A DNA stretch of 32,000 nucleotides from Geobacter metallireducens GS-15 (GTDB taxonomy: Bacteria; Desulfobacterota; Desulfuromonadia; Geobacterales; Geobacteraceae). Positions within the stretch are counted from its first letter, which is position 1; each line of letters starts with the position of its first letter. The DNA is taken from positions 750,001-782,000 of the forward strand of contig NC_007517.1 in NCBI RefSeq assembly GCF_000012925.1. The letters run 5' to 3'. Made by a program: the position numbers and the translations under genes. Shown one piece after another: positions 8,550 to 27,028 of this stretch. The notes beneath the pieces were generated by a model that was not told where the DNA came from, did no database searches, and was given only the letters and a program-made list of their open reading frames with translations.

Positions 8550-8882
8550 ATGAGCGGCACGACCGAATCCCTGGTGGGACGCGCCATTGATCTGAAGGAA
8601 CTTATCGCATACCAGGAAGGCTCCGTTGTGAGCAAGACCCTCAACGACAAGAAGGTGGGCACAATCACCCTCTTCGCCTTCGATAAGGGGCAGGGGCTGA
8701 GCGAGCATACTGCCCCCTACGATGCCTTCGTGGAGATCGTGGACGGCGAGGCCGACATCACCATTGTCGGCACCGACCACCGGGTGAAGGAGGGGCAGTT
8801 CATCATCATGCCCGCCAATCAGCCCCACGCCCTGCGGGCGGTGACCCCGTTCAAGATGCTGCTGGTGATGATCCGGGCATAA
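8550..8882 (+). CDS. Small cupin-domain protein (110 aa)
   Basis: ATG 8550 follows AAGGAGG. Cupin-like motifs are present: G(x)5H in GQGLSEHTAPYD and the second motif in IIMPANQPHAL. Confidence 0.75.
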   Translation: MSGTTESLVGRAIDLKELIAYQEGSVVSKTLNDKKVGTITLFAFDKGQGLSEHTAPYDAFVEIVDGEADITIVGTDHRVKEGQFIIMPANQPHALRAVTPFKMLLVMIRA

Positions 8883-8965
8883 ACCTGTTTATAAAACAGT
8901 CAGGCTTTTTTCCCCATCGGCTTCGTAAGCCGGAAGTAAGGGGTTTCTATGGTAGGGCATGGGCG

Positions 8966-8981
8966 TGGCACGCCTTGTGCT
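8966..8981 (+). promoter_or_regulatory. Sigma-54 (-24/-12) promoter for nifV
   Basis: The sequence is TGGCACGccttgTGCT. GG (8967-8968) and GC (8979-8980) are at the canonical 12-nt offset. Confidence 0.7.
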
Positions 8982-9010
8982 TTAAAGTCAGGTACAATTC
9001 GAGATTAATC

Positions 9011-9051
9011 GGCAATGGCGCCCCGGAACATCAGTTCCGGGGCTTTTTTTT
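9011..9051 (+). terminator. Leader (attenuator) terminator upstream of nifV, with an overlapping ANTAR-like hexaloop hairpin
   Basis: The 10-bp stem is GCCCCGGAAC(9020-9029) / GTTCCGGGGC(9034-9043), followed by 8 T (9044-9051). The RBS and the ATG at 9067 come after that. GGC-AATGGC-GCC (9011-9022) shares its 3' arm with the terminator's 5' arm. Confidence 0.75.
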
Positions 9052-9066
9052 CGAAAGGAGCCTGCC

Positions 9067-10218
9067 ATGGAAAGCGCGACAAAGAACACAGTCATTATCG
9101 ACGACACCACTCTGCGCGACGGCGAGCAGACCGCTGGCGTCGTTTTCAGCAAAAGGGAAAAGCTGGCCATCGCCCGGCTGCTGGACGACATCGGGGTGCA
9201 GGAGCTGGAATGCGGCATCCCGGCCATGGGGGAGGAGGAGCGGGAGGTGATCCGTGCCCTGGTGGACCTGGGGCTCAACGCCCGACTCATCACCTGGAAC
9301 CGGGCCGTGATCCCCGACATCGAGGCATCCCTGGCCTGCGGCGTTGCGGCGGTGGACATCTCCCTCTCGGTCTCTGACCAGATGATTGCCCACAAACTCC
9401 GCACAAGCCGGGATGGGGTCATGGAGCAGCTGAAACGGGCCCTGGGCTTTGCCAAAGAACATGATCTCTACGTCTCCGTCGGTGGGGAGGACGCGAGCCG
9501 GGCCGACCTCGGGTTCCTGGCCGAGCTCATGGAGATCACCTGCTCCATGGGGGGAGACCGCTTCCGCTTCTGCGACACTCTCGGCATTCTCGACCCGTTC
9601 ACCATGTACGAGAAGGTGAAGGCCCTGCGGGCTGCAGCCCCCGGCCTTGACATCGAGGTCCACACCCACAATGACCTGGGGATGGCCACAGCCAACGCCC
9701 TCGCCGGCATCAAGGCTGGTGCCCGTTTTGTGAACACCACGGTGAACGGCCTCGGGGAGCGGGCAGGCAACGCGGCTCTGGAAGAGGTGGTGATGGGGCT
9801 CAAGCTTGCCTGCGGCATCGACCCGGGGATCGACACCCACCGCTTCCACGAGATTTCCCGCTTCGTTGGAAGGGCCTCCCAGCGGCCGGTCCCCCCCTGG
9901 AAGGCGGTAGTGGGGGAGCGGGTATTCTCCCATGAATCGGGGCTTCACGCCGACGGGGTCATCAAGGATGCCCGCAACTACGAGGGGTTCGATCCGGCCG
10001 AGGTGGGGCTTTGCCGACACATCGTGGTGGGGAAGCATTCGGGGACCAGCGGCCTTGTGGAGCGTTTCCGGCAGATGGGGATTGAGCTCTCCCGGCAGGA
10101 GGCAGGTGCTCTGATGGATGGGGTGCGGGCCATGGCCCAGCGGCTGAAGCGCCCCCTCTCCGACGGGGAGCTTCGAGCCCTCCATGCCGCGGGGCGGTGC
10201 GCCCTCAGGGCGGCATGA
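9067..10218 (+). CDS. nifV: Homocitrate synthase (NifV-type, HMGL-like family)
   Basis: DTTLRDGEQ and HTHNDLGMATAN motifs are present. The 383-aa length fits NifV rather than long LeuA/CimA forms. The gene has a sigma-54 promoter and sits in a nitrogen-regulation context. Confidence 0.75.
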   Translation: MESATKNTVIIDDTTLRDGEQTAGVVFSKREKLAIARLLDDIGVQELECGIPAMGEEEREVIRALVDLGLNARLITWNRAVIPDIEASLACGVAAVDISLSVSDQMIAHKLRTSRDGVMEQLKRALGFAKEHDLYVSVGGEDASRADLGFLAELMEITCSMGGDRFRFCDTLGILDPFTMYEKVKALRAAAPGLDIEVHTHNDLGMATANALAGIKAGARFVNTTVNGLGERAGNAALEEVVMGLKLACGIDPGIDTHRFHEISRFVGRASQRPVPPWKAVVGERVFSHESGLHADGVIKDARNYEGFDPAEVGLCRHIVVGKHSGTSGLVERFRQMGIELSRQEAGALMDGVRAMAQRLKRPLSDGELRALHAAGRCALRAA

Positions 10219-10267
10219 GAAGAATGGGGCACTCTGGAAATAATGAGTGCTTATATAATGTGCAAAT

Positions 10268-10304
10268 GGAGGTGGCGTAAGCGATGCGCCCCCCCTTGTT
10301 TTTT
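10268..10304 (+). terminator. Terminator after nifV
   Basis: The hairpin is GGCGTA(10274-10279) / TGCGCC(10285-10290), extendable through GG...CC pairs. It is followed by TTGTTTTTT. Confidence 0.6.
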
Positions 10305-10369
10305 CTGTCCGGCACGCCAATGCTTGCTAACCTCACGGAATTACTTGGCGGGAATTTAATGAGGCGTGA

Positions 10370-10385
10370 TGGCATGCCTTATGCT
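10370..10385 (+). promoter_or_regulatory. Sigma-54 (-24/-12) promoter for the porin-glnB-amtB operon
   Basis: The sequence is TGGCATGccttaTGCT. GG (10371-10372) and GC (10383-10384) are at the canonical offset. Confidence 0.7.
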
Positions 10386-10464
10386 AATTCGTTACCAGAA
10401 GCCGGGGGCACAAAGGTTGTGTCGCTGGCCGGGAAAAGCACTAGAGAAGCAAACGGATCAGCAA

Positions 10465-10505
10465 GGCAAAGGCGCCTTCCGCTACCAAGCGGAGGCGCCT
10501 TTTTT
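10465..10505 (+). terminator. Leader terminator in the 5' UTR of the porin-glnB-amtB operon, with an overlapping ANTAR-like hairpin
   Basis: The stem is GGCGCCTTCCGCT(10471-10483) / AGCGGAGGCGCC(10488-10499), followed by TTTTTT. GGC-AAAGGC-GCC (10465-10476) competes with the terminator's 5' arm. Confidence 0.75.
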
Positions 10506-10596
10506 GTTTACTTAGTGGAAAGGAGGCGTGTGCGGGACCCGATGAATCGTGTGCAGTGCAGATGCAATACAATAAAACTTACAAAGGAGTATGGAC

Positions 10597-11346
10597 ATGA
10601 ACAAGACACTGAAGACTTTTTCCCTGGCACTGGCACTGGTGGCCGCCACCTGCGGCGCCGCTCTGGCAACCCCCTCCACCCAGATATGGATTCCGTCCAC
10701 CGATGTCCAGGCATTCAAGACGGTTCACCTTGGCCTCGATAACTATACCCGCACGTCCAAGCACAACGGCGTCACTACCAATACCTATGATGCCGGCGTG
10801 ACGGTTGGCGTTCTCCCCTTCGAGAAGCTGCAGATGGAGGTGGGGGTCGACTATATGGAAACCGGTACCAATTCAGCCACCGACAGCAGCCCCTTCTACT
10901 TCAACGCGAAGATCGGCACCCCTGAGGATGCCCTGTTTCCCTATTCGCCGGCCCTTGCCGTCGGTGGCTACAATTTCGGTACGAAAGTGGGGGTGACCAC
11001 CCAGAACATCACGTATGCCCTGGCTGCGAAGACGCTTCCCGTCATCGGGAGAATCTCTGCCGGGTACTACCACGGCAGCGGCAGGGTGCTGGTGGACGAA
11101 AACGGAAAGGCCGCCAATGACGGCGTGCTCCTCTCCTGGGACCGGACCATGAGCGAGATTTCCGACAAGCTGTGGGCGGCAGTTGATTACCAGAGCGGCA
11201 ACAGCGGTGCAGGTGCCCTGAACTTCGGTGTTTGCTGGGCCTTCTCCAAAAACGTCTCGCTGATCGTCGGCTACGACATCTACAACAACGCCTACACCGG
11301 CGGCAAGAATACCATCACCACGCAGCTCGACATCAACATCCCTTAG
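10597..11346 (+). CDS. Predicted outer-membrane beta-barrel (porin-like) protein of unknown specificity
   Basis: A signal peptide is present (MNKTLKTFSLALALVAATCGAALA). The rest shows alternating hydrophobic/polar beta-strand periodicity with aromatic girdles. ATG 10597 has better spacing from AGGAG (10585-10589) than ATG 10591. Confidence 0.65.
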   Translation: MNKTLKTFSLALALVAATCGAALATPSTQIWIPSTDVQAFKTVHLGLDNYTRTSKHNGVTTNTYDAGVTVGVLPFEKLQMEVGVDYMETGTNSATDSSPFYFNAKIGTPEDALFPYSPALAVGGYNFGTKVGVTTQNITYALAAKTLPVIGRISAGYYHGSGRVLVDENGKAANDGVLLSWDRTMSEISDKLWAAVDYQSGNSGAGALNFGVCWAFSKNVSLIVGYDIYNNAYTGGKNTITTQLDINIP

Positions 11347-11369: not shown

Positions 11370-11711
<342 letters not shown>

Positions 11712-11745: not shown

Positions 11746-13212
11746 ATGAAGTTTAAACTATCATTTGTCGCATTGCTGGCAACTGTCGCGCTCTCGCTCC
11801 CGGTCGCCCTCCTGGCAGAGGAGGTGAAGACCGCCGCTCCGGCACAGGCTGCCCTGTCCTCGGCCCAGACGGCTGCCCTTGCGCCCGCTGTCACCGCGGC
11901 GCCCGCCGCTGCTCCGGCCACCCCTGCCGCACCGAAAAACGTCGATCCGGTTCTCAATACCGGCGACACCGCCTGGATGCTCGTCTCCGCCGCCATGGTC
12001 CTCTTCATGATTCCGGGCCTTGCCTTCTTCTACGGCGGCATGGTCCGGGGCAAGAACGTCCTCTCGACGATCATGCACTCCTTTGTCGCCATGGGGATCG
12101 TCGGTGTGCAATGGGCGGTGATTGGCTACTCCCTCTCCTTCGGCCCTGACATCGGCGGCGGCCTCCTCGGGAACCTGAGCAAGGCGCTCCTGAACGGTCT
12201 CATCACCTTCAAGGATGGCAACCCGGTCTACGCCCTCTTTCAGAACGTGCCGACCGCACCGGGGGCCATCCCTGAGTACGTCTTCGCCATGTTCCAGTGC
12301 ATGTTCGCCATGATTACCGTTGCCCTCATCTCCGGCGCCCTGGCCGAGCGGGTGAAGTTCTCCGCCTACTGCGTCTTCGTGCTCCTCTGGACCACCCTGG
12401 TGTACGACCCCTTGGCCCACTGGGTCTGGATGAGCGACGGCTGGCTCTTCAAGAAAGGCGCTCTCGACTTCGCCGGCGGCACGGTTGTTCACCTCTCCTC
12501 CGGTATCTCGGCCCTGGCGTTTCTCATCTTCCTCGGCAAGCGGCACGGGTTTCCCCACGAGCGGATGGCGCCCCACAGCCTGCCGCTGACTATGCTCGGC
12601 GTCGGCATGCTCTGGTTCGGCTGGTTCGGCTTCAACGCCGGTTCCGCCATCGTCGGGGCCAACTGCTCCGACGCGGCGGGGGGGCTGGCCGGTCTCGCCT
12701 TTGCCACCACGACCATCGCGCCGGCTGCCGGCGGCCTTTCCTGGATGATCGCGGAATGGATTCACGCGGGCAAACCTTCCGCCCTCGGTTTCGGTTCCGG
12801 TGTCGTTGCCGGCCTGGTCGTCATTACCCCCGCTGCCGGTTTCGTGCAACCCGGGGCCGCCATCCTCATGGGACTTGCGGCGGGCGTGGTCTGCTATGGT
12901 GGCGTGCTGCTGAAGGCCAAGCTCAAGTACGACGACTCCCTCGACGCCTTCGGTGTCCACGGAGTGGGGGGGACCTTCGGCGCCCTCACCACCGGTATCT
13001 TCGCCACCGTCGGCGCCACGGGGCTCCTCTCCGGCAATGTCTCCCAGTTCTTAACCCAGGTGATTGCAGTCGTGGCCGCCGGCGCCTATGCCTTCATCGT
13101 CACCCTTGTTATTGCCTTTGTCCTCCACAAGACCATCGGGCTCCGCGTGGAAAAGGAAGACGAGATCATGGGGCTCGACCAGACCCAGCATTCCGAGTCG
13201 GCCTACAACTGA
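11746..13212 (+). CDS. amtB: Ammonium transporter (Amt family) with a signal peptide and an Ala/Pro-rich N-terminal linker
   Basis: Signature segments DFAGGTVVHLSSG and FGWFGFNAGS are present. I count about 11 TM segments. The gene lies directly downstream of P-II. Confidence 0.93.
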   Translation: MKFKLSFVALLATVALSLPVALLAEEVKTAAPAQAALSSAQTAALAPAVTAAPAAAPATPAAPKNVDPVLNTGDTAWMLVSAAMVLFMIPGLAFFYGGMVRGKNVLSTIMHSFVAMGIVGVQWAVIGYSLSFGPDIGGGLLGNLSKALLNGLITFKDGNPVYALFQNVPTAPGAIPEYVFAMFQCMFAMITVALISGALAERVKFSAYCVFVLLWTTLVYDPLAHWVWMSDGWLFKKGALDFAGGTVVHLSSGISALAFLIFLGKRHGFPHERMAPHSLPLTMLGVGMLWFGWFGFNAGSAIVGANCSDAAGGLAGLAFATTTIAPAAGGLSWMIAEWIHAGKPSALGFGSGVVAGLVVITPAAGFVQPGAAILMGLAAGVVCYGGVLLKAKLKYDDSLDAFGVHGVGGTFGALTTGIFATVGATGLLSGNVSQFLTQVIAVVAAGAYAFIVTLVIAFVLHKTIGLRVEKEDEIMGLDQTQHSESAYN

Positions 13213-13270: not shown

Positions 13271-13369
13271 TGCCTCAATTGTGGGCGCTTTGCTGCCTAA
13301 ATGGTGTGCATGTTTTGCCCTGTTTGCTTGGATTGCTTTGTAACTTGTTGATAATACGAATGGTGCTTC

Positions 13370-13385
13370 TGGCACGCCTCGTGCC
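13370..13385 (+). promoter_or_regulatory. Sigma-54 (-24/-12) promoter for the small histidine kinase gene
   Basis: The sequence is TGGCACGcctcgTGCC. It is almost identical to the nifV promoter and has the canonical GG/GC offset. Confidence 0.7.
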
Positions 13386-13432
13386 TACAAGGTATGAGGC
13401 ACCCTATTTAACCGGTCTGCACCAGAGGACCC

Positions 13433-14179
13433 ATGGCGGATGCACTGGCGAAATATCTCCCCGACAACGGCAACGTGGAAGGGGAACTTCTGGAACTGCT
13501 TGCCTTCAACGAGAAGATGGCGGAACTGGGGAGGATGGCGGCGGGAGTGGTTCACGAGCTGAACACCCCCCTGTCGGTCATTGTCTCGGCCACCCAGATG
13601 ATCCTCCGGGAGGAGGAACTGCCCGAGTTCGTCCGCGAGATGGTGGAGCGGGTCAACGAGGAGGCCCACCGCCTGGCCGAGCTGACCAAGGGGGTCCTCT
13701 CCTTTGCCCGGCGGGATAGTGGGGGGCGGGCCGAGGCGGATGCGAACCAGGTCATCGGCGAGGTCATGACCTTCCTCCGCTTCGAGGCCGGGAAGCGGTC
13801 CATCGGTGTCATCGAGGACCTGGACCACCGGCTCCCCTTCATCGCCGCCGACGCCAACCGGGTGAAACAGGTGATCATCAACCTGGTCATGAACGCCTTC
13901 CAGGCCATGGGTGAGGGGGGAACTCTCTTCCTGCGGACGGTTCAGGAGAGCGAGACGGCCGTTACGGTGCAGGTGGCCGACACCGGTCCCGGCATCCCCC
14001 CTGACGCCCAGGAGCGGATCTTTACCCCCTTCTTCACCACCAAGGAGCCGGGGGAGGGGACCGGCCTCGGCCTCTTCATCACCCGCAAGCTCATGGAAGG
14101 AATCGGCGGCGCCATCGCCGTGAAGAGCGTGGTGGGAGAGGGGACCACCTTCACCCTGACCTTTCCCGTTGCGGAATAA
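13433..14179 (+). CDS. Cytoplasmic histidine kinase with no sensor domain (GnfK-like nitrogen-fixation regulator kinase)
   Basis: H-box VHELNTPLSVI, N-box INLVMNAFQA, G1 DTGPGI and G2 GTGLGL are present. There is no TM segment and only ~25 aa before the DHp domain. Its position after amtB matches what I recall for gnfK in G. sulfurreducens. Confidence 0.8.
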   Translation: MADALAKYLPDNGNVEGELLELLAFNEKMAELGRMAAGVVHELNTPLSVIVSATQMILREEELPEFVREMVERVNEEAHRLAELTKGVLSFARRDSGGRAEADANQVIGEVMTFLRFEAGKRSIGVIEDLDHRLPFIAADANRVKQVIINLVMNAFQAMGEGGTLFLRTVQESETAVTVQVADTGPGIPPDAQERIFTPFFTTKEPGEGTGLGLFITRKLMEGIGGAIAVKSVVGEGTTFTLTFPVAE

Positions 14180-15278: not shown

Positions 15279-15444
15279 TTTCTTATCACGAGCGACCGAG
15301 GGACTGGCCCTATGACGTCGCGGCAACCCCCCGCAAGGGGACGGTGCCAAATCCTGCGGAACGGCAACGTTCCGGGAGATAAGGAAGAGCGTTGCCGCCG
15401 TAACGGCGAAAAATCCTCTTCCGCACCCCGGAAGGGGATTTTTT
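15279..15444 (+). promoter_or_regulatory. SAM-I (S-box) riboswitch with a terminator expression platform
   Basis: The aptamer reads TTCTTATCACGAGCGACCGAGGGACTGGCCCTATGA...GGCAACC...GGTGCCAAATCCTGC...GGGAGATAAGGAA. The terminator is ATCCTCTTCCG / CGGAAGGGGAT plus TTTTTT (15412-15444). GGAAGAG (15383-15389) can pair with CTCTTCC (15415-15421) as an antiterminator. Confidence 0.93.
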
Positions 15445-15465: not shown

Positions 15466-16641
15466 ATGAACATCGCAACCCAGACAGCACAGATCGGACT
15501 TGAGTGGGACACCCGCACCGGCGCGGTGACGGTCCCCATCTACCAGACGGCCACCTTCCGGCACCCGGGGCTCGGCCAGAGCACCGGCTACGACTATACC
15601 CGCTCCGGCAACCCCACCCGGCAGGCCCTGGAGGAGGGGATCGCCCGCCTGGAGGGAGGCGCCCGGGGCTTCGCCTACGCCTCGGGCATGGCCGCCATCG
15701 CCAATCTCCTCCTCCTCTTCAAGAAGGGGGACCACTTGGTGGTGACCGAGGATCTCTACGGCGGTACCTGTCGTCTCTTCGACCAGATCTTCACCCAGTA
15801 CGAGCTCTCCTTCACCTACGTGGACACGAGCGACATCAAGGCAGTGCGTGCCGCCATCCGCCCAGAAACGAAGGCCCTCTTCGTGGAGTCCCTCACCAAC
15901 CCGCTCCTCAAGGTAGCCGACATCGCGGCCCTCTCGGCCCTCTGCCGGGAGCGGGGGCTTCTCCACATCGTGGACAACACCTTCCTCACCCCCTATCTCC
16001 TGCGCCCCTTCGACCATGGGGCCGACATCACCGTCTACAGCGCCACCAAGTACCTGGCCGGCCACAACGACACGGTCTCCGGCCTCGTGGCGGTGAAGGA
16101 CCCGCAGCTGGCCGAGCGGGTCTACTTCCTCCAGAACTCGGTGGGTGCGGTCCTGGGCCCCCAGGATTCCTGGCTCACCATCCGGGGGATGAAGACCCTT
16201 TCGGTGCGCCTCGACCGACAGCAGGAGAACGCAGGGCGGGTCGCCCAGTGGCTTTCGAATCACCCGCGGGTGCGGAAGGTCTACTACCCCGGCCTCTCCG
16301 GCCACCCCGGCCACCCCGGCCATGAACTCCTCGCCCGCCAGGCACGGGGCTTCGGTGCCATGATTGCCTTCGAGGTGGACGAGCATGCGCTCGTGGAGCG
16401 TTTGCTTCTGAAGACGGAAGTGATATCCTTCGCCGAGAGCCTCGGCGGGGTGGAAACCCTCATTACCTTCCCCCAGGTCCAGACCCATGCCGATATTCCG
16501 CCCGAACTGCGGCAGCGGCTTGGGATCAACGATGTGCTCCTGCGCCTCTCCGTGGGGATCGAGGACGCGGACGACCTGATCGACGACCTGGCCCAGGCGT
16601 TTGAAGGCGGGGACCAGGGATCGGGAACCGGGGACCGGTAA
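15466..16641 (+). CDS. Cys/Met-metabolism PLP enzyme (cystathionine gamma-synthase / beta-lyase family), paralog 1
   Basis: IPIYQTATF, the PLP-Lys motif YSATKYLAGHND and the family-typical C-terminus LRLSVGIEDADDLI are present. The extra tail GGDQGSGTGDR is encoded by a G-rich repeat. Confidence 0.9.
   Translation: MNIATQTAQIGLEWDTRTGAVTVPIYQTATFRHPGLGQSTGYDYTRSGNPTRQALEEGIARLEGGARGFAYASGMAAIANLLLLFKKGDHLVVTEDLYGGTCRLFDQIFTQYELSFTYVDTSDIKAVRAAIRPETKALFVESLTNPLLKVADIAALSALCRERGLLHIVDNTFLTPYLLRPFDHGADITVYSATKYLAGHNDTVSGLVAVKDPQLAERVYFLQNSVGAVLGPQDSWLTIRGMKTLSVRLDRQQENAGRVAQWLSNHPRVRKVYYPGLSGHPGHPGHELLARQARGFGAMIAFEVDEHALVERLLLKTEVISFAESLGGVETLITFPQVQTHADIPPELRQRLGINDVLLRLSVGIEDADDLIDDLAQAFEGGDQGSGTGDR
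16609..16633 (+). repeat. GGGAYC-type tandem array (four G-runs; fits the G3+N1-7 quadruplex pattern)
   Basis: The sequence is GGGGaccaGGGatcGGGaaccGGGG. A related array lies at 26104-26132. Confidence 0.7.
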
Positions 16642-16675
16642 AGGCTTTCAAATCGCTTATCGAAAGGAATATTGT

Positions 16676-17812
16676 ATGAAATTCGGCACCCGCATCATCC
16701 ACACCGGCCACGACATCGACCCCACCACCGGGGCGGTTTCCATCCCCATCTACCAGACCTCTACCTTTCGTCAGGAGTCGGTGGATCACTTCGGCAAGTA
16801 TGACTATGCCCGTTCCGACAATCCCACTCGGGAGGCCCTGGAGGAGACCATTGCCCAGCTGGAGGGAGGAACTCGCGGGTTTGCCTACGCCTCGGGGATG
16901 GCGGCCATCTCGTCGGTGCTGCTTCTCTTCTCGCCGGGGGATCACCTGGTGGTCTGCGAGGATGTGTACGGGGGGACGTTCCGGGTCCTGACCCAGCTCT
17001 TCAGCCGCCTCGGCATCACCTCCACCTTCGTGGATGCCACCGATCTGGACGCCATCGCCGCTGCGTTCCGGCCCGAGACCAAGGGGCTCTTCCTGGAGAG
17101 CCCGTCGAACCCGCTTCTCAAGATCACCGACCTGGAAGGCGCGGCCCGCATCGCCCGGGAGCGGGGCGCCATAACGCTGGTGGACAACACCTTCATGACT
17201 CCCTACCTCCAGAGGCCCCTGGAGGTGGGGTGCGACATCGTCCTCCACAGCGGGACCAAGTTCCTGAACGGCCACAGCGACGTCATCTGCGGCTTTGCCG
17301 TGGTGAAGGACCCCGAGTTGGGGAAGCGGATCCGCTTCATTCAGAATGCCTTCGGCGCCATCCTCGGCCCCCAGGATTCGTGGCTCGTGCTCCGGGGGCT
17401 CAAGACCCTTCGGGTGCGGATGGAGGAGAGCCAGCGGAGCGCGACCCGCATCGCCTCGTGGCTGGCGGGAGAGAAGCGGGTGACCCGGGTGCTGTACCCC
17501 GGCCTTCCGAGCCACCCCGGCCATGCAATCCATGCCCGCCAGAGCTCGGGTCCCGGCGCGGTTCTCTCCTTTGCCCTCGACTCCCTGGAGGTTACCCGCC
17601 GGCTCCTGGAGGGGATGAAGCTGGCCGCCTTCGCCGTGAGCCTCGGCGGGGTGGAGAGCATCATCTCCTACCCGGCCAGGATGTCCCATGCGGCCATGCC
17701 CCCCGAGGAGCGGGCCGCCCGCGGCATCGGCGACACGCTCGTGCGCCTCTCGGTGGGGCTGGAGGAGGCCGACGACCTCATCGCGGAGATGGACCGGCTC
17801 ATCAACGGCTGA
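16676..17812 (+). CDS. Cys/Met-metabolism PLP enzyme (cystathionine gamma-synthase / beta-lyase family), paralog 2
   Basis: ATG 16676 follows AAAGGAA. IPIYQTSTF, HSGTKFLNGHSD and LRLSVGLEEADDLI are present. The 5' extension in the ORF track overlaps the upstream gene. Confidence 0.9.
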   Translation: MKFGTRIIHTGHDIDPTTGAVSIPIYQTSTFRQESVDHFGKYDYARSDNPTREALEETIAQLEGGTRGFAYASGMAAISSVLLLFSPGDHLVVCEDVYGGTFRVLTQLFSRLGITSTFVDATDLDAIAAAFRPETKGLFLESPSNPLLKITDLEGAARIARERGAITLVDNTFMTPYLQRPLEVGCDIVLHSGTKFLNGHSDVICGFAVVKDPELGKRIRFIQNAFGAILGPQDSWLVLRGLKTLRVRMEESQRSATRIASWLAGEKRVTRVLYPGLPSHPGHAIHARQSSGPGAVLSFALDSLEVTRRLLEGMKLAAFAVSLGGVESIISYPARMSHAAMPPEERAARGIGDTLVRLSVGLEEADDLIAEMDRLING

Positions 17813-20498: not shown

Positions 20499-20674
20499 AA
20501 TCCCCCCGCTGTTCCCCCCATGGGGTTCGCCGTCTCCCGTTTCAGATTTCCCCGTAACGCTTTCGCAATTCTGCAAATAATACTGGATTTTTTTATGACG
20601 TATACATAGTATGTCCTTTGACTTCGCTAACTTTCAGGACAGGGGATCCCGTGCGCCGCTATTTTTTTGCCTTC

Positions 20675-22618
20675 ATGAACAACCTGAAGCTGCGCTGGAA
20701 GATGCTGGTGCTGGTGCTCCCCCTCGTGACGGTTCCGATCGTTCTGGTCGGTGGGGTCATCAGCTACATTTCAACCCAACAGGCGTACCGGGGGATCACC
20801 CAGACCAGCAAGGACGACCTGGCCCACATGGCCAGTTTCACCATCGACCTCCTCAATTCCCACTACCAGCAGTTCCAGGTATACAAGCAGGACAAGCAGC
20901 GGAGCACCAACCTGGAGCTGGCCACCCTCACCACCCTTGCCTACAACATGGTGGAGGCCCAGCATCGCCAGTACAAGAGCGGCAAGGTCGACCTCCGGAC
21001 CGCCAAGGAAGAGGCCCGCAAGGCCCTGAAACGGGTCAACGTGGGGACGACCGGCTACATCTACGCCATGTCCACCAAGGGGGATCTGGAGGTGCACATC
21101 GCCCGGGAGGGGGAGAACGTCTACGAGGAGAAGGACGAGAACGGCCGCCCCTTCATCCGGATCATGTGCGAGAACGCCCTGAAGTCCAAGCCGGGGGAGG
21201 TCCTCTACATCGTCTACCCCTGGCGCAACCCGGTGCTCGGCGACAAGTATCCCCGCAACAAGGTGGTTGCCTACCGTTATTTCCGGGAGTGGGACTGGAT
21301 CATCGCCTCGGGGGGCTACCTGGAGGAGACCTACGAAGACCTCGCCTTTGAGCGCCGCTCTTTCCAGGAGCTGAAGGATAAGATCAAGAGCAAGAAGGTG
21401 GGGGATACCGGCTACATTTTCTGCATGGACGACAAGGGGAACTTCACCGTTCACCCCGGCGGGGAGGGGAAGAATTTCCTCAACGCCGTGGATTCCAGCG
21501 GCCACAAGTTCATCAAGGAAATGGTGGAGAAGAAGCGGGGCTGGATCCGCTATCCCTGGCTCAACCCCGGGGAAAAGAACCCGCGGATGAAGATCGTCCG
21601 CTACGACTACTTCAAACCGTGGGGATGGATTGTGGCGGTCGGCTCCTACGAGGACGAGTTCTACGGGGAGGCCAACAAGATCCGGGGCCGGATCGCAGCC
21701 TCCATGACGCTGCTGACCATTGTGACGAGTGTTGTGGCCACCGGGCTGGTCTTCCTGGCGGCCAAGATTTTCACTCAGCCCATCATGCACATGATCGACG
21801 TGATCCGTAGGGTGAAGAAAGGGCGGCTCGACGAGCAGATGGAGGTGGATGCGGGGGATGAGCTGGGCGAGATGGCGTCGGCCTTTAACCTGATGACCGC
21901 CATGATCCGCCAGAACAAGGAGATGGAGGCAAGCCTCGCCCAGCAGGGGAAGATGGCGTCCCTCGGTGTCCTCTCCTCGGGGGTGGCCCACGAGATCAAC
22001 AACCCACTCGGGGTTATCCTTGGCTACGCCTCCTACATCGAGGGGAAAACCAGCGAGGATGATCCCAACTACAGGTTCATCCACGAGATCAAGCGGGAGA
22101 GCAAGCGGTGCAAGAAGATCGTCCAGGATCTCCTCTCCTATGCCCGCACCCCCAAGCCGGCCCTGGAGTGGACCGACGTGAACGACCTGCTGGGGCAGAT
22201 CGTCGATTTCGCCGCCAATCACACCGACATGCACCACGTGACCGTCGTGAAGGATTTCTCTCCCGAATTGCCCCGGGTCATGGTCGACGGCGACCAGATC
22301 AGGCAGGTGGCCATCAACCTGATCCTGAACGCCGGAGCCGCCATGTCCGGGGAAGGGACCCTGACGGTGAAATCGTTCCTGGACGGCGAGGGGTACGTAA
22401 ACATCGTCTTCTGTGACAACGGGGCGGGAATACCCGCCGAGGACATCGAAAAAATTTTCGAGCCCTTCTTCACCACCAAGGCCAAGGGGACGGGGCTCGG
22501 CCTTGCCATCACGAAGCAGATCATCGAGATGCACCATGGCAAGATCAGCATCCTGAGCGAAGTGGGGAAGGGGTCCGACGTGATTGTGAAGCTGCCGGTG
22601 GACCGGGACGAGCTGTGA
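20675..22618 (+). CDS. Sensor histidine kinase with two tandem periplasmic Cache-like domains plus HAMP
   Basis: An internal duplication is visible (TGYIYAMSTKGDLEVH...YPWRNP...WDWIIASGGY versus TGYIFCMDDKGNFTVH...YPWLNP...WGWIVAVGSY). H-box VAHEINNPLGVI, DNGAGI and GTGLGLAI are present. The start is uncertain: ATG 20675, GTG 20651 or TTG 20618. Confidence 0.88.
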   Translation: MNNLKLRWKMLVLVLPLVTVPIVLVGGVISYISTQQAYRGITQTSKDDLAHMASFTIDLLNSHYQQFQVYKQDKQRSTNLELATLTTLAYNMVEAQHRQYKSGKVDLRTAKEEARKALKRVNVGTTGYIYAMSTKGDLEVHIAREGENVYEEKDENGRPFIRIMCENALKSKPGEVLYIVYPWRNPVLGDKYPRNKVVAYRYFREWDWIIASGGYLEETYEDLAFERRSFQELKDKIKSKKVGDTGYIFCMDDKGNFTVHPGGEGKNFLNAVDSSGHKFIKEMVEKKRGWIRYPWLNPGEKNPRMKIVRYDYFKPWGWIVAVGSYEDEFYGEANKIRGRIAASMTLLTIVTSVVATGLVFLAAKIFTQPIMHMIDVIRRVKKGRLDEQMEVDAGDELGEMASAFNLMTAMIRQNKEMEASLAQQGKMASLGVLSSGVAHEINNPLGVILGYASYIEGKTSEDDPNYRFIHEIKRESKRCKKIVQDLLSYARTPKPALEWTDVNDLLGQIVDFAANHTDMHHVTVVKDFSPELPRVMVDGDQIRQVAINLILNAGAAMSGEGTLTVKSFLDGEGYVNIVFCDNGAGIPAEDIEKIFEPFFTTKAKGTGLGLAITKQIIEMHHGKISILSEVGKGSDVIVKLPVDRDEL

Positions 22619-22656: not shown

Positions 22657-24039
22657 GTGTCCGAAAACAAGCGCATCATGCTCATCGACAACGAGGAGGG
22701 GCTCTGCCGGATGATGGAGGCGGTGCTTCTGGATAGCGGCTATGGCGTGAAGGGGTACACCCGCTCCTTCGAGGCGGTGGAGGAGTTTCGGCCCGGCGAC
22801 TGGGATCTGGTGGTCTCGGACATCAAGATGCCGGGGATGGATGGTCTGGAGGTGCTCCAGCGGATCAAGGCCAAGGAGCCGGCCATTCCGGTCATCATGA
22901 TCACCGCCTACGCCACGGTGGAGATGTCGATCCAGGCCCTGCGCCGGGGCGCCTACGACATGCTGACCAAGCCCTTCGAGCCCGAGGAGCTCCTCTACCG
23001 GGTGAAAAACGCCCTCAAGCACACCGAGCTTCTGGAAGAGAACCGGGAGCTGCGCGAGAAGCTGGTGGGTAAGTTCCGCTTCGACAACATAATCGGCGCC
23101 TCGGACGGGCTCAAGGGGGTTTTGGAGAAGGTGGAGAAAATCGCCATCCGGGACACGTCGGTGCTCATCACCGGCGAGTCGGGGACCGGCAAGGAGCTCA
23201 TCGCCCAGGCGATCCACTACAACTCGGTCCGCAAGGAAAAGAAGTTCGTTGCCATCAACTGCGGTGCCCTGCCGGAGACGCTCCTGGAGAGCGAGCTCTT
23301 CGGCTACCGCAAGGGGGCCTTCACTGGCGCCAAGGAAAACCGCCAGGGACTTCTGGAGGCGGCCGACGGGGGAACCCTGTTTCTGGACGAGGTGGGGAAC
23401 CTCCCCATGAACGTGCAGAAGACGCTTCTCCGTTTCCTCCAGGAGCAGGAGTTTCTCCGCATTGGCGACACCACCCCCACCAAGGTGGACGTGCGGATCA
23501 TCTCGGCCACCAACGCCGACCTGCGGGAAGGGGTCAAGAGCGGCGCCTTCCGGGAGGACCTCTACTACCGCCTCAACGTGGTGAACCTCCATCTCCCGCC
23601 GCTGCGGGAGCGCAAGGGGGATATCCCGCTCCTGGCGGCCCATTTCATTGCCCAGCAGAACAAGAAATTCGACACCGCAATCAAGGGGTTGTCACCCGAC
23701 TCCCTGGAAGCGGCCGTTGGCTATGCCTGGCCCGGCAACATCCGCCAGCTCAGGAACGTGATCGAGGCCTGCACAGCCATGGAGAGCGGCGAATACATTA
23801 CGCTGTCGGTCCTCTCCCAGTTCATCGAGCTTCCCGAGCCACGGGACGAGCCGGCCGTGGAGGCGGAAGGGGAGGAGGGTGCCTACGCCCAGGCCCTTTC
23901 CCGCTTCGAGATGGACTACATCCGGGGACTGTTGCGGAAAAACCGTGGCAATGTGGAGGCAGCCGCCCGTGAGGCGGGGATGAACATGGCCACCATCTAC
24001 CGGAAAATGAAGAAGTACAACCTGCGCCGCGAAGAATAG
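22657..24039 (+). CDS. Sigma-54-dependent response regulator (NtrC family: receiver, AAA+, Fis-type HTH)
   Basis: The receiver segment VVSDIKMPGMDG, Walker A GESGTGKE, the sigma-54 contact loop GAFTGA and a C-terminal HTH (NVEAAAREAGMNMATIYRKMKKY) are present. The start is GTG 22657. Confidence 0.93.
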   Translation: MSENKRIMLIDNEEGLCRMMEAVLLDSGYGVKGYTRSFEAVEEFRPGDWDLVVSDIKMPGMDGLEVLQRIKAKEPAIPVIMITAYATVEMSIQALRRGAYDMLTKPFEPEELLYRVKNALKHTELLEENRELREKLVGKFRFDNIIGASDGLKGVLEKVEKIAIRDTSVLITGESGTGKELIAQAIHYNSVRKEKKFVAINCGALPETLLESELFGYRKGAFTGAKENRQGLLEAADGGTLFLDEVGNLPMNVQKTLLRFLQEQEFLRIGDTTPTKVDVRIISATNADLREGVKSGAFREDLYYRLNVVNLHLPPLRERKGDIPLLAAHFIAQQNKKFDTAIKGLSPDSLEAAVGYAWPGNIRQLRNVIEACTAMESGEYITLSVLSQFIELPEPRDEPAVEAEGEEGAYAQALSRFEMDYIRGLLRKNRGNVEAAAREAGMNMATIYRKMKKYNLRREE

Positions 24040-24088: not shown

Positions 24089-24110
24089 CCCCTCGCACCC
24101 CTGCGAGGGG
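24089..24110 (+). terminator. GC hairpin after the regulator gene (possible terminator, no U-tract)
   Basis: The stem is CCCCTCGCA cccc TGCGAGGGG (9 bp). It is followed by AAGGGCC, so intrinsic termination is doubtful. Confidence 0.35.
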
Positions 24111-24208
24111 AAGGGCCGCAATGTTGCAAATGACAGCAATGTCAATGTGTTATGCTCTGTTGACGGTCTCCGTAGCCGCCTCTCTCCGACTCGCCGCCAC
24201 TTCTCTCC

Positions 24209-24222
24209 TTGCATGCCTGCAA
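24209..24222. promoter_or_regulatory. Palindrome TTGCA-N4-TGCAA, candidate enhancer (UAS) site 2
   Basis: The sequence is cTTGCAtgccTGCAAa, ~120 bp upstream of the -24 element. An AT-rich tract (24260-24330) lies between it and the promoter. Confidence 0.45.
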
Positions 24223-24332
24223 AAACACCGTTAGATATCTCTCCTCGCTTTTGGTTCACAGCGAACTGAATACTGTTTTTAAGTGTTTGTAATTACTGTG
24301 ATATTTGGTTTGTAAAAATATTTTCACCGATT

Positions 24333-24348
24333 TGGTATACAGGTTGCT
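24333..24348 (+). promoter_or_regulatory. Sigma-54 (-24/-12) promoter of the four-gene cassette
   Basis: The sequence is TGGTATacaggTTGCT. GG (24334-24335) and GC (24346-24347) are at the canonical offset. It lies downstream of an enhancer-binding-protein gene. Confidence 0.65.
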
Positions 24349-24473
24349 CTTACCAAAATCAGTTACTCCTTCGAAAAGCATGGGTCGGAGCCGGGGATGG
24401 TGACGACCAGATGAACCGGCACTCCTCCCATGCGCGGCAGAAAAACCGAAACGGTTTAGTGATAGAGGTTCCC

Positions 24474-24665
24474 ATGAAGGACGGAATTGTCTGCCCCTTC
24501 TACGGCAAAAGCGATGACATCTGCGACGTGGGGTGCGGTTACATCTCACCCCACGACGTCAACATGATCATCAAGTTCTGCAGCTGCCGGTACCGCGAGT
24601 GCATGAAGTACCAGGAGCTGTCGGAACGGTTTCCCCACGAGGTACTTACACCGGTAAAGTGTTGA
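24474..24665 (+). CDS. Small Cys-rich protein (63 aa, 7 Cys), function unknown
   Basis: ATG 24474 follows AGAGG. The sequence is MKDGIVCPFYGKSDDICDVGCGYISPHDVNMIIKFCSCRYRECMKYQELSERFPHEVLTPVKC. The longer track start at 24411 has no RBS. Confidence 0.6.
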   Translation: MKDGIVCPFYGKSDDICDVGCGYISPHDVNMIIKFCSCRYRECMKYQELSERFPHEVLTPVKC

Positions 24666-24684
24666 GCAATAAAAGGAGGAAGTC

Positions 24685-24807
24685 ATGCTGTACAACCTGA
24701 GTCTGCACCTTGATGGACCGTATATCCTGTATGCCCTGACGATTGTGGCGGCCTTAACGGTTATTTCTTTGGTAAAGGAGAAGAGAGATGAGCGAAAGAG
24801 AGCTTGA
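24685..24807 (+). CDS. Mini-protein (40 aa) with one TM helix and a basic tail; absent from the ORF track
   Basis: A strong AAAAGGAGGA RBS lies 4 nt upstream of ATG 24685. My manual translation is MLYNLSLHLDGPYILYALTIVAALTVISLVKEKRDERKRA, stop at 24805-24807. It overlaps the next gene's start by 20 nt. Confidence 0.5.
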   Translation: MLYNLSLHLDGPYILYALTIVAALTVISLVKEKRDERKRA

Positions 24808-25039
24808 ACTGCTGGCTAGAATTGAGCAACTGGAGCGGCACACCTGGCGCAACAGCGCCATCCTCCGTGCGGTAGCCATGGTGGCCGGCACTGCCATGAT
24901 AGGTCTCTTCATCGCCTCGGGGGTTGTGGGGGGCGGACACGGGAGCCACTGGAGCGGACCGGCCTGGAACACCATGTGGCTCTACGGCCTGTTCGCGGCG
25001 AATGCGGTGTCCATGTTCTGGACAACCCATAAGAACTAG
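24788..25039 (+). CDS. Small membrane protein (83 aa): N-terminal heptad-like helix plus two TM segments
   Basis: An AAGGAG RBS is present. The sequence begins MSERELELLARIEQLERH, followed by the hydrophobic segments AVAMVAGTAMIGLFIASGVV and MWLYGLFAANAVSMFW. Confidence 0.6.
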   Translation: MSERELELLARIEQLERHTWRNSAILRAVAMVAGTAMIGLFIASGVVGGGHGSHWSGPAWNTMWLYGLFAANAVSMFWTTHKN

Positions 25040-25049
25040 GAGAATAGCC

Positions 25050-26099
25050 ATGCCAATGTCAATCAAGAACGCAATCCTGCTCTTTGTTGTGGTGGCCCTT
25101 TGCGCCGCATTCAGCATGAGGATATTCCAGGGACTCGACGAGATGATGGGCGACCAGTACTGGGTCGTCGACACCACCCAGGGAGACCACGGGTGGTACG
25201 CCATGGGGCTCCTCCCCCATGTGAAGCTGATGGCCAAGGATGTGGTCAAGGCCGTAAACACCGACGCCGACAAGAGCAACAACTACGAGATCTATGCCCA
25301 GGCAGGGGATTTTGCCGGCAACTCGGTTTACGGGATCTGCTACGGCATCCCCCTCATCATGTACCTGATCTGGTTCGCCTTCATCCTTGGCTTCCCTGAC
25401 CGGGTTGATCCGTATCTGTTGCCGCGTAAGATATTCACCCTTGCCGTCATCACCTGCTGCTCGATTGTCGTGAACCTCTTCCTGATGCGTATTACCGCCG
25501 ACTTCGCCACCGATCCCATGTCGCGCATCGCCAACGTGGCAGGCAACCACGCATCGCTTCTGTTCCATAATGCCGGCATCTGGTTCGCGATTCTCTTCTC
25601 GGCCCTGGGAACCCATGCCCATTCCGCCCAGGAAACGAGCGCTCCCGACAGCCGCCAGTGGCAGACCCAGGCCAACGAGAAGTTCTCCTGGATGTTCATT
25701 CTCCTTGGCGCCGTGACCGTGCTTGAGCTCTTCCTGGTGAAGGGCAAGCTTGCCCTCCCCGACGCGGCAGTCGACTACTCGGTCTGGCTCATCTGGGTGG
25801 TGATCTTCATGCGGATGTTCGGCTTCTCTCCCAAGTACTGGTTCAAGCGTGGCCGCGGCCTCGCCATCATGTTCGTCGGCACGGCCCTGACCCTCGTGGC
25901 CTTCTACTTCCTGGAGCGGTTCACCGGAAACCTCGGCGCCGGCTTTGCCTCCCCGATTCTGGCCAAGGCCCTTGGCGTGGAGAACCAGAACATCGGCCTC
26001 TCCCTTATGATCTCCATCTACCTGATCTTCTGGATGGAATTCTCCGCGGCCATCCGGATGAACGGTCCGGCCAAGAGTGCGGTGGAACAAAAGCATTAA
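25050..26099 (+). CDS. Polytopic membrane protein (349 aa, ~8 TM, with a ~80-aa loop after TM1), function unknown
   Basis: ATG 25050 follows TAGGAGA. The track's upstream extension overlaps the previous gene. I recognise no transporter or enzyme signature. Confidence 0.7.
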   Translation: MPMSIKNAILLFVVVALCAAFSMRIFQGLDEMMGDQYWVVDTTQGDHGWYAMGLLPHVKLMAKDVVKAVNTDADKSNNYEIYAQAGDFAGNSVYGICYGIPLIMYLIWFAFILGFPDRVDPYLLPRKIFTLAVITCCSIVVNLFLMRITADFATDPMSRIANVAGNHASLLFHNAGIWFAILFSALGTHAHSAQETSAPDSRQWQTQANEKFSWMFILLGAVTVLELFLVKGKLALPDAAVDYSVWLIWVVIFMRMFGFSPKYWFKRGRGLAIMFVGTALTLVAFYFLERFTGNLGAGFASPILAKALGVENQNIGLSLMISIYLIFWMEFSAAIRMNGPAKSAVEQKH

Positions 26100-26103
26100 G
26101 GCA

Positions 26104-26132
26104 GGGACCCGGGACCGGGGATCGGGACCGGG
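26104..26132 (+). repeat. GGGAYC-type tandem array (five G-runs) directly after the cassette's stop codon
   Basis: The sequence is GGGacccGGGaccGGGGatcGGGaccGGG. It is related to the array at 16609-16633. Confidence 0.7.
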
Positions 26133-26148
26133 AAAAACCTGAAAAACA

Positions 26149-26180
26149 GAAGAGGCGGCGGGATTTCCCGTCGCCTCTTC
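26149..26180. terminator. Strong hairpin between convergent genes (bidirectional terminator)
   Basis: The stem is GAAGAGGCG(26149-26157) / CGCCTCTTC(26172-26180) with an inner CGGG/CCCG stem. A T-run follows on the minus strand (the complement of 26133-26148). The T-run on the plus strand is weak. Confidence 0.75.
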
Positions 26181-26203
26181 GCGTTTATGCCGTCTTGGCT
26201 TTC

Positions 26204-26860
26204 TTATGCGCGGTGTTCCACGACCACCTGCAGCCCCTCCAGCTCTTCTTCCAGAGATGCAATGAGGCGCTCCACCATCTCCCGGTAGTCGCCGGGAAGC
26301 TCCTCTACCCCACGCAGGGCGGTGTCGAGGCGTCGCGCCGCGCCGAGGGCCGCTTTCAGGGGGACCGACGGGTCGCTCACGGGCTCCTCGCGGGTCTTGG
26401 CCACTTCCTTGAACTGTTTTAGGACGGTGGGATGGCTCCGTTCCTGTTCCACCACGCTCTTGCGCAGATCCGCGTACTCCTCGTCGGAGAACCCCTTCTC
26501 CTCCCGGGCCTGGCGCAGGAGGTCGATGGAGCGGTAGTCGGGGAAGGGGCGGGGCTCTTCGCGGCGCGCCATGAGCTCCGGCTCGTTCTTCTCCATGAAG
26601 CGGTACGCGAGAGTCAGCTTCTGGGCCGTCTCCTTCTTGATCCTGATCTCCTTGGTGCAGTAATCCTCGAAGCTTCCGTAGCCCCATTCCTTGTAGAGGT
26701 CCCGTGAGCTGACGGCCAGGAGCCGGTCCCCCAGTTCCACCCATGATGACTTGAAGCGCTTGGCGGTCTCCAGGACCTGGAAGCGTTCCGACGTGGGGTC
26801 CAGCTCCCCCATGATGCGTTCGATGAAGCGCTCGCCCGATGATTTGGGGATGTCGGTCAT
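26204..26860 (-). CDS. Hypothetical all-helical charged protein (218 aa), possibly HTH-containing
   Basis: ATG 26860 has an AAGGAG RBS. The segment WGYGSFEDYCTKEIRIKKETAQKLTLAYRF resembles ParB/DUF3102-type HTH regions. That resemblance is from memory and has not been searched. Confidence 0.6.
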   Translation of the reverse strand: MTDIPKSSGERFIERIMGELDPTSERFQVLETAKRFKSSWVELGDRLLAVSSRDLYKEWGYGSFEDYCTKEIRIKKETAQKLTLAYRFMEKNEPELMARREEPRPFPDYRSIDLLRQAREEKGFSDEEYADLRKSVVEQERSHPTVLKQFKEVAKTREEPVSDPSVPLKAALGAARRLDTALRGVEELPGDYREMVERLIASLEEELEGLQVVVEHRA

Positions 26861-27028
26861 GATCGGTTCTCCTTGTTCGGTTCTTTTTCGAGTGATACCA
26901 CAGAACGCCTCCCGCACCAACGGCAGAATGAATCGGCGCCATGTTTTGCCTTGGCTGGGGATAACGGTTCGGGGTACAATTCACACGTTTGCTATCGATT
27001 TCTAGTGTAACGAGGGAGTTCCCATCCG

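Follow-up and report, generated by a model that had tools for sequence, protein, structure and literature searches.

The channel-glnK-amtB operon of Geobacter metallireducens GS-15 is located within the 32,000-nucleotide stretch of DNA analyzed here (the window throughout). A preliminary description of this stretch had proposed that its ammonium uptake genes are controlled at two layers, by enhancer-dependent initiation from a sigma-54 promoter and by antitermination within the leader, the latter through a trans-acting RNA-binding regulator. This raises the question of whether the operon leader encodes such a switch, which regulators would operate it, and how it relates to the leader-controlled systems already described in Geobacter and elsewhere.

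Gene content and transcription initiation

The first gene of the operon (10597-11346) encodes a 249-aa protein on record as an "outer membrane channel" (UniProt Q39XT9), for which no Pfam or NCBIfam family was matched. It is followed by a P-II nitrogen regulator gene of the glnK/glnB type (11373-11711; identified by Pfam PF00543 and by NCBIfam) and by the gene for the ammonium transporter AmtB (11746-13212; Pfam PF00909, with TIGR00836 above its cut-off). These genes, together with the leader and promoter features described below for the operon, its upstream neighbor nifV, and a downstream kinase gene, are all encoded on the + strand. An exact-sequence look-up identified the channel, P-II, and Amt products as G. 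metallireducens ABB30935-ABB30937 (neighborhood ABB30934-ABB30938), and a literature search under the locus tags Gmet_0692-0697 found no report. The identity of nifV, which lies 5' of the operon, was confirmed by TIGR02660.

A sigma-54 (RpoN) -24/-12 element, TGGCATGCCTTATGCT, is found upstream of the operon at 10370-10385 with the GG-N10-GC spacing, just as had been claimed. The pattern TGGCAY-N6-TGC matches the window three times, more often than the 0.57 expected, and all three matches are intergenic and on the + strand, being located 5' of nifV (8966), the channel-glnK-amtB operon (10370), and the kinase gene (13370). The element was also found in 27 orthologous leaders. Given the distance at which transcription normally begins from a -12 GC, the start would be near 10396. 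Further upstream, at 10248-10264, is a candidate site for an enhancer-binding protein of the GnfM type, TGCTTATATAATGTGCA, placed 106-122 nt 5' of the -24 element. Exact matches to TGCNTA-N5-TRTGCA occur at two places in the window, here and at 13294-13310 in front of the gnfK-like promoter, and three matches are obtained when up to one mismatch is allowed (0.35 expected). Most of the related loci likewise have a TGC-(AT-rich)-GCA box in the equivalent place. We infer that this site is bound by GnfM, and the assignment is put no more strongly since the published GnfM logo exists in a figure only. The preliminary description had recognized the promoter and the 12-mer/terminator device correctly, but it overlooked both this activator site and the upstream hairpin (P1) described below.

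Directly after amtB is a gene (13433-14179) encoding a 248-aa HisKA/HATPase kinase that has no sensor domain. Its control region, which together with the gene spans 13294-14179, contains its own sigma-54 element (13370-13385) with the TGCCTAAATGGTGTGCA box (13294-13310) located 60 nt further 5', and it has no leader terminator. In Geobacter, the two-layer cascade published by Ueki & Lovley (Nucleic Acids Res 2010) consists of GnfL/GnfM, which activates RpoN promoters, and of the sensorless kinase GnfK with the REC-ANTAR regulator GnfR, which relieve premature termination at terminator-bearing leaders (PMC2995071). Both the architecture of the kinase found here and its position after amtB fit an assignment as GnfK, and its lack of a leader terminator fits with the report that gnfK is under the control of GnfM alone (PMC2995071). 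The partner regulator is a different matter. The preliminary description had also referred to the REC-ANTAR gene, and on this point its account needs correction, as no such gene was found in the window when ~50 ORFs were compared with Pfam and all six frames were searched with a regular expression for the ANTAR signature; only the partner kinase gene is present. A separate location agrees with the 2010 comparison, which included the G. metallireducens genome and listed homologues of both GnfK and GnfR encoded by unlinked genes (PMC2995071). In six relatives (L013, L017, L020, L021, L029, and L041), a REC-ANTAR gene of ~200 aa (Pfam PF03861 plus PF00072) is immediately 5' of the operon, which ties this class of regulator to the operon independently of the literature.

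Two more regulatory genes were observed 7-10 kb downstream of the operon. The one at 20618-22618 encodes a histidine kinase with dCache and HAMP domains, and its neighbor at 22657-24039 encodes a sigma-54 activator of the NtrC family. Beyond this pair is a region of ~3 kb (24100-27000) containing long ORFs on both strands without a Pfam match, such as the 641-aa ORF on the - strand at 25059-26984. The GC content drops to 0.53 at 24-25 kb, and an rve-type transposase gene (28647-29846) follows the region.

Two hairpins and a terminator in the operon leader

The first structure that the nascent RNA would encounter is P1, a small hairpin at 10408-10422 with the stem G-CAC/GUG-U and the loop AAAGGUU, which the minimum-energy fold lengthens to a helix of 10401-10429. 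Its loop has 7 nt, with A at position 1 and G at position 4. P1 is followed by a linker (10423-10462) that is predicted to be unstructured and then by the 12-mer GGCAAAGGCGCC at 10465-10476. The 12-mer forms a hairpin of 3-5 bp with the hexaloop AAAGGC, the longer version of which, AAGGC-AAAGGC-GCCUU (10463-10478), we refer to as the P2 antiterminator hairpin. The first base of the 12-mer is 79 nt past the end of the promoter element and ~69 nt past the presumed start near 10396. The motif GGCAANGGCGCC has exactly two matches in the window, at 9011 and 10465 (0.01 expected), and two matches were obtained in none of 100 shuffled sequences.

Immediately overlapping P2 is an intrinsic terminator comprised of a 12-bp stem with a single bulged U (10471-10499, closed by G10471-C10499) and a run of six U (10500-10505), again in agreement with what had been claimed for this leader. 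The terminator is present in the RNAfold minimum-energy structure of the presumed leader (-48 kcal/mol, z -3.5); a pattern scan recovers just its inner 8 pairs (10476-10495). Folding the leader without the 3' arm of the terminator yields AAGGC-AAAGGC-GCCUU instead. The segment GGCGCC at 10471-10476, which closes the 12-mer and opens the 5' arm of the terminator, is common to both structures; therefore, the terminator and P2 are mutually exclusive.

P2 corresponds to the published binding site of GnfR. The conserved site CAGGCAANGGCGCC has been described for four terminator-bearing leaders, those of nifH, nifEN, Gsul_0938 (a hypothetical-glnK-amtB operon), and the Gsul_2799 operon, in which it is located 5' of the terminator and overlaps it (PMC2995071), and the window sequence at 10463-10476, AAGGCAAAGGCGCC, agrees with it at 12 of the 13 specified positions. 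The sole mismatch is at the 5' end, where the window leader has AA in place of the CA with which the published 14-mer starts, and this counts against the GnfR reading. P2 also has the features expected of an ANTAR target. These targets are pairs of small hairpins in which the first loop base is A and the fourth is G (Ramesh et al. 2012, PMC3369931; PMC8934654), and P2 has a stem of 3 bp or more and a hexaloop with both of these bases in place. With P1 carrying the same two bases, the leader is consistent with the dual-hairpin picture, and P1, although its loop has 7 nt, is a candidate for the second ANTAR-type hairpin. The distance between the two is less typical. Counted from 10421, where the conserved CAC-loop-GTG core of P1 ends, to the 12-mer (10465), as was done for all leaders, the linker is 43 nt long, as compared to the 5-12 nt of eut-type linkers. 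This length was counted against a dual-hexaloop fit and, together with the 7-nt loop of P1, against the GnfR reading.

The leader continues past the terminator. The U-run and the start codon are separated by 91 nt, close to the ~90 nt of additional leader that had been noted before, and the first gene is preceded by the ribosome binding site AAGGAG (10584-10589) and starts with the ATG at 10597-10599. The true start is this codon rather than the one at 10591, because the 249-aa product is the only one on record and the ATG at 10597 is conserved in the relatives. A Shine-Dalgarno-like box, GAAAGGAGG, is located at 10518-10526, 12 nt past the U-run, and 19 of the 27 leaders contain such a GAAAGGRG(G) box at a position 7-15 nt past the U-run and 48-72 nt 5' of the real ribosome binding site. 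No conserved ORF was detected 3' of the box, only variable mini-ORFs of 1-12 codons, and the 91-nt region past the terminator has no significant or stable fold. On these grounds, neither an additional riboswitch nor a leader peptide was accepted as the function of this region. Candidate explanations for the box are a stand-by site for the ribosome, a GGA site of the CsrA type, and a relic sequence, and it might add a third layer of control that is translational or CsrA-type in nature. Separately, it was observed that the sequence around the ribosome binding site of the channel gene (10579-10592), (T)TACAAAGGAGTA, is nearly identical across genera, a degree of conservation beyond that required for a Shine-Dalgarno function, and that it resembles RUACARGGAUGU, the consensus for CsrA.

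Rfam does not recognize the device. Neither a search of the entire window at gathering scores nor a search of 8850-10700 at E<=10 returned a family covering the leader element, and the output was limited to matches below threshold, for which the nifV terminator was responsible, and to a SAM riboswitch with no relation to the device. This riboswitch (RF00162, 97 bits) is at 15280-15385 and is positioned 5' of two genes for PLP enzymes of Cys/Met metabolism (15466-16641 and 16601-17812).

Conservation of the leader and its sister copy at nifV

The comparison covered 80 genome loci (referred to by L numbers) in which a relative of the channel protein is encoded. The exact 12-mer occurs in ~27 operon leaders, nearly all from Geobacteraceae, at a distance of 66-114 nt past the start of TGGCA-N7-TGCT. 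In the 747 kb comprised of these loci and the window, there are 36 copies in total, ~31 of which have a sigma-54 element on their 5' side and a U-run on their 3' side. Among the 27 Geobacteraceae leaders having promoter, 12-mer, and U-run, 24 exhibit the order promoter, P1, and P2/terminator. An alignment of 25 leaders revealed that GGCAA-GGCGCC is invariant, including A1, A2, and G4 of the loop, and RNAalifold detected compensatory changes in 6 of 11 pairs of the inner terminator stem across the same number of leaders.

P1 is conserved in a similar manner. The pattern gCAC-AxxGxx-GTGc is present in 24 of 27 leaders, 18-31 nt past the promoter. In its loop, G4 is invariant among the orthologues and 24 of 26 have A1. 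In its stem, the three inner pairs are constant and the outer pairs covary, such that 4 of 7 pairs have changed on both sides (covariation score of 0.163 vs 0.089 in shuffles). A loop of 7 nt is shared by the window with L001, L003, L031, and L028, and the other 21 of 26 orthologues have a true hexaloop. Linker length is more variable: most of the other leaders have 14-33 nt, the G. metallireducens clade (the window, L001, L003, and L031) has 43-44 nt, and L021 has 64 nt.

Outside of this family, the channel gene is found without the device. Channel proteins of 57-70% identity are encoded in Opitutaceae, Bacteroidales, Nitrospirota, Elusimicrobia, and Deferrimicrobia (L008, L014, L015, L026, and L034-L080), and these loci contain neither the 12-mer nor the terminator, although a few have a sigma-54 element directly 5' of the gene. 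The 12-mer is specifically absent from the operons of Bacteroidales, Opitutaceae, and Nitrospirota. Because of this distribution, the ANTAR layer looks like an addition made in the Geobacteraceae and Desulfuromonadales.

Within the window, a sister copy of the device precedes nifV (8966-9051) and consists of a sigma-54 element (8966-8981), P2 (9011-9022), a terminator (9020-9043), and a run of eight U (9044-9051). The nifV 12-mer GGCAATGGCGCC (9011-9022, GGC-AATGGC-GCC) differs from the operon copy at loop position 3 alone, which bears out the single loop difference reported earlier. The preliminary description had argued from the shared element in these two leaders. The sharing of the element stood up to comparison, but the near-exact identity of the two 12-mers is partly coincidental, because loop positions 5-6 vary in the nifV leaders of relatives, where the loops read AATGGA, AATGAC, or AACGGT. 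The real constraint is therefore GGC-AANGNN-GCC. The nifV leader also differs from the operon leader in other respects. No P1 was found in it, and its folds were inconsistent among four relatives. Only ~20 nt separate the presumed start from P2, the terminator arm begins at GCC rather than at GGCGCC, and the Shine-Dalgarno-like box is the true ribosome binding site (9053-9060).

A known nitrogen switch, its rivals, and its meaning

The device itself is already known, having been published for Geobacter in 2010 in a comparison that included this genome, and the two-layer switch is ordinary in the sense that the same device was described there. The proposal of sigma-54 initiation combined with antitermination by a trans-acting REC-ANTAR regulator is supported, as it is equivalent to the published GnfL/GnfM and GnfK/GnfR cascade and the hexaloop site agrees. 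The window shares with that system an RpoN promoter, upstream sites of the GnfM type, a CAGGCAANGGCGCC-like site overlapping the 5' arm of the terminator, the hypothetical-glnK-amtB type of operon, and a sensorless gnfK-like gene after amtB, with gnfR unlinked according to the 2010 comparison. It differs in the first base of the 14-mer, which is A in the window leader rather than C. The main text of Ueki & Lovley describes no upstream P1 hairpin and does not include nifV among the listed leaders. Their experiments used G. sulfurreducens nifH, for which the terminator was found to be functional and the loss of either gnfK or gnfR led to premature ends of the transcripts; binding of GnfR to its site depended on GnfK and ATP, i.e. 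on phosphorylation (PMC2995071). Of the features of a GnfR attenuator, the RpoN promoter, the GnfR site, the overlapping terminator, and the nitrogen operon downstream were found. Overall, we consider it very probable that the channel-glnK-amtB leader is under GnfM-dependent initiation and GnfR-dependent antitermination.

In the operon leader, the sequence elements, the mutual exclusivity of P2 and the terminator, and the conservation and covariation of these structures are demonstrated, while we infer where transcription starts, that it terminates and can be read through, which activator is involved, and what P1 contributes. Under nitrogen limitation, the NtrC-family protein GnfM bound at ~10248-10264 would turn on the sigma-54 promoter at 10370-10385. 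The nascent RNA, starting near 10396, would form P1 (10408-10422) and then, ~40 nt further on, P2 (10463-10478). By default, the 3' GGCGCC of P2 would pair with the downstream GGCGCC to create the 12-bp terminator (10471-10499) followed by the six U, and transcription would end at 10500-10505, ~110 nt from its start. GnfK, produced from its own sigma-54 promoter (gene at 13433-14179), would phosphorylate GnfR, which in this form would bind to the hexaloop hairpins and hold P2 closed. With P2 held in this way, the terminator could not form and polymerase would read into the channel gene, glnK, and amtB.

Other ANTAR systems illustrate what is shared and what is peculiar in this arrangement. As in the Enterococcus faecalis eutP leader, which is controlled by EutV/EutW, the regulator would be a phosphorylated REC-ANTAR protein, and there are two A1/G4 hairpins and a P2 whose 3' half overlaps the terminator. 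Unlike eut, with its linker of 5-12 nt, the window leader has one of 43 nt and most relatives have one of 14-33 nt, the P1 loop of the window has 7 nt, the promoter is of a different type, and the signal is nitrogen rather than ethanolamine/AdoCbl. For EutV, linkers outside of 5-12 nt (14 nt, or an additional 20 nt) abolish antitermination (PMC3369931, PMC8934654). NasR acting on the Klebsiella oxytoca nasF leader, as well as NasT and AmiR, are likewise ANTAR proteins that block a leader terminator 5' of nitrogen-assimilation genes, except that their sensors are a NIT domain, a NasS partner, and an AmiC partner, respectively, rather than a phosphorylated receiver, and their leader sequences differ. 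The closest predictions are those of Ramesh et al., who reported ANTAR sites 5' of nitrogenase units in Pelobacter carbinolicus and 5' of P-II/ammonium-transporter genes in many bacteria (PMC3369931). The P. carbinolicus sites belong to the same predicted class of nitrogen ANTAR regulons and to the same order, Desulfuromonadales. Their table lists a single G. metallireducens hit, a NifU-like locus, and the absence of the channel-glnK-amtB leader from it speaks against the GnfR reading (PMC3369931); the covariance search possibly missed this leader because of its long linker.

Three other explanations of the leader were weighed against attenuation by GnfR. One could suppose that the hairpin is an unregulated terminator or insulator, ending nifV transcription or producing a constitutive short transcript, with the 12-mer being nothing other than part of its stem. 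By sequence it is indeed a strong intrinsic terminator, and since GGCGCC is self-complementary, its conservation could partly reflect the stem alone. However, the 5' half of the 12-mer, GGCAAN, is outside of the stem yet invariant in 25 leaders. In addition, the terminator is located 3' of the sigma-54 promoter instead of directly after nifV, which by eye appears to have an imperfect terminator-like hairpin and T-run of its own at ~10268-10305, 5' of that promoter, with clearer equivalents in L003 and L031. As the order of promoter, P1, P2, terminator, and operon is also kept across genera, we regard this explanation as highly improbable. A role for the terminated leader of ~110 nt as a sigma-54-dependent, trans-acting small RNA, which might titrate GnfR, for example, either besides cis attenuation or in place of it, is very improbable. 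Such a role would suit a discrete, structured transcript running from promoter to terminator with two loops of the ANTAR type, and EutX, which titrates EutV, offers a precedent for a small RNA that sequesters an ANTAR protein (PMC8934654). Nevertheless, the element is always on the same strand and directly 5' of the operon, the linker, outside of which no bases are free for pairing, shows little conservation, and no Rfam family was matched.

The same lack of an Rfam match, here even at E<=10, is one of several findings that make a metabolite riboswitch (e.g. for glutamine) or a target of a non-ANTAR RNA-binding protein extremely improbable, in spite of the nitrogen-assimilation genes downstream and a leader of ~200 nt that is long enough to raise the idea. 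The conserved parts of the leader are only the two small A1/G4-loop hairpins and the terminator, the region past the terminator is without a significant fold, and the site equals one that was bound by GnfR experimentally (PMC2995071). Control by GnfM and GnfR thus remains the preferred reading.

A more tentative suggestion, which we hold to be possible but rather doubtful, is that ANTAR regulators of the GnfR type may be able to do without the tightly spaced pair of hexaloops that EutV requires. It is prompted by the 43-nt spacing and 7-nt P1 loop of the operon leader, by the nifV leader having no P1, and by the RNA that was bound by GnfR in vitro in 2010, which had the P2-type site alone (PMC2995071). 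The minimal ANTAR site has likewise been redefined as a single hexaloop (Walshe et al. 2022, PMC8934654). If true, GnfR acting co-transcriptionally via single or widely spaced hexaloops would extend the successive-binding model, and the relaxed geometry would also explain why covariance searches miss the channel-glnK-amtB leader. The P1-P2 spacing relative to EutV, the single-hairpin copy at nifV, and the Shine-Dalgarno-like box are loose ends of some value. Beyond the device of 2010, the present analysis adds P1, a candidate activator site, and the finding that the architecture recurs in ~27 genomes of Geobacteraceae, where the terminator stem has changed in a compensatory manner. For G. metallireducens itself, the analysis places the ammonium-uptake and P-II genes under the GnfM/GnfR cascade, which is useful for the annotation of its genome.
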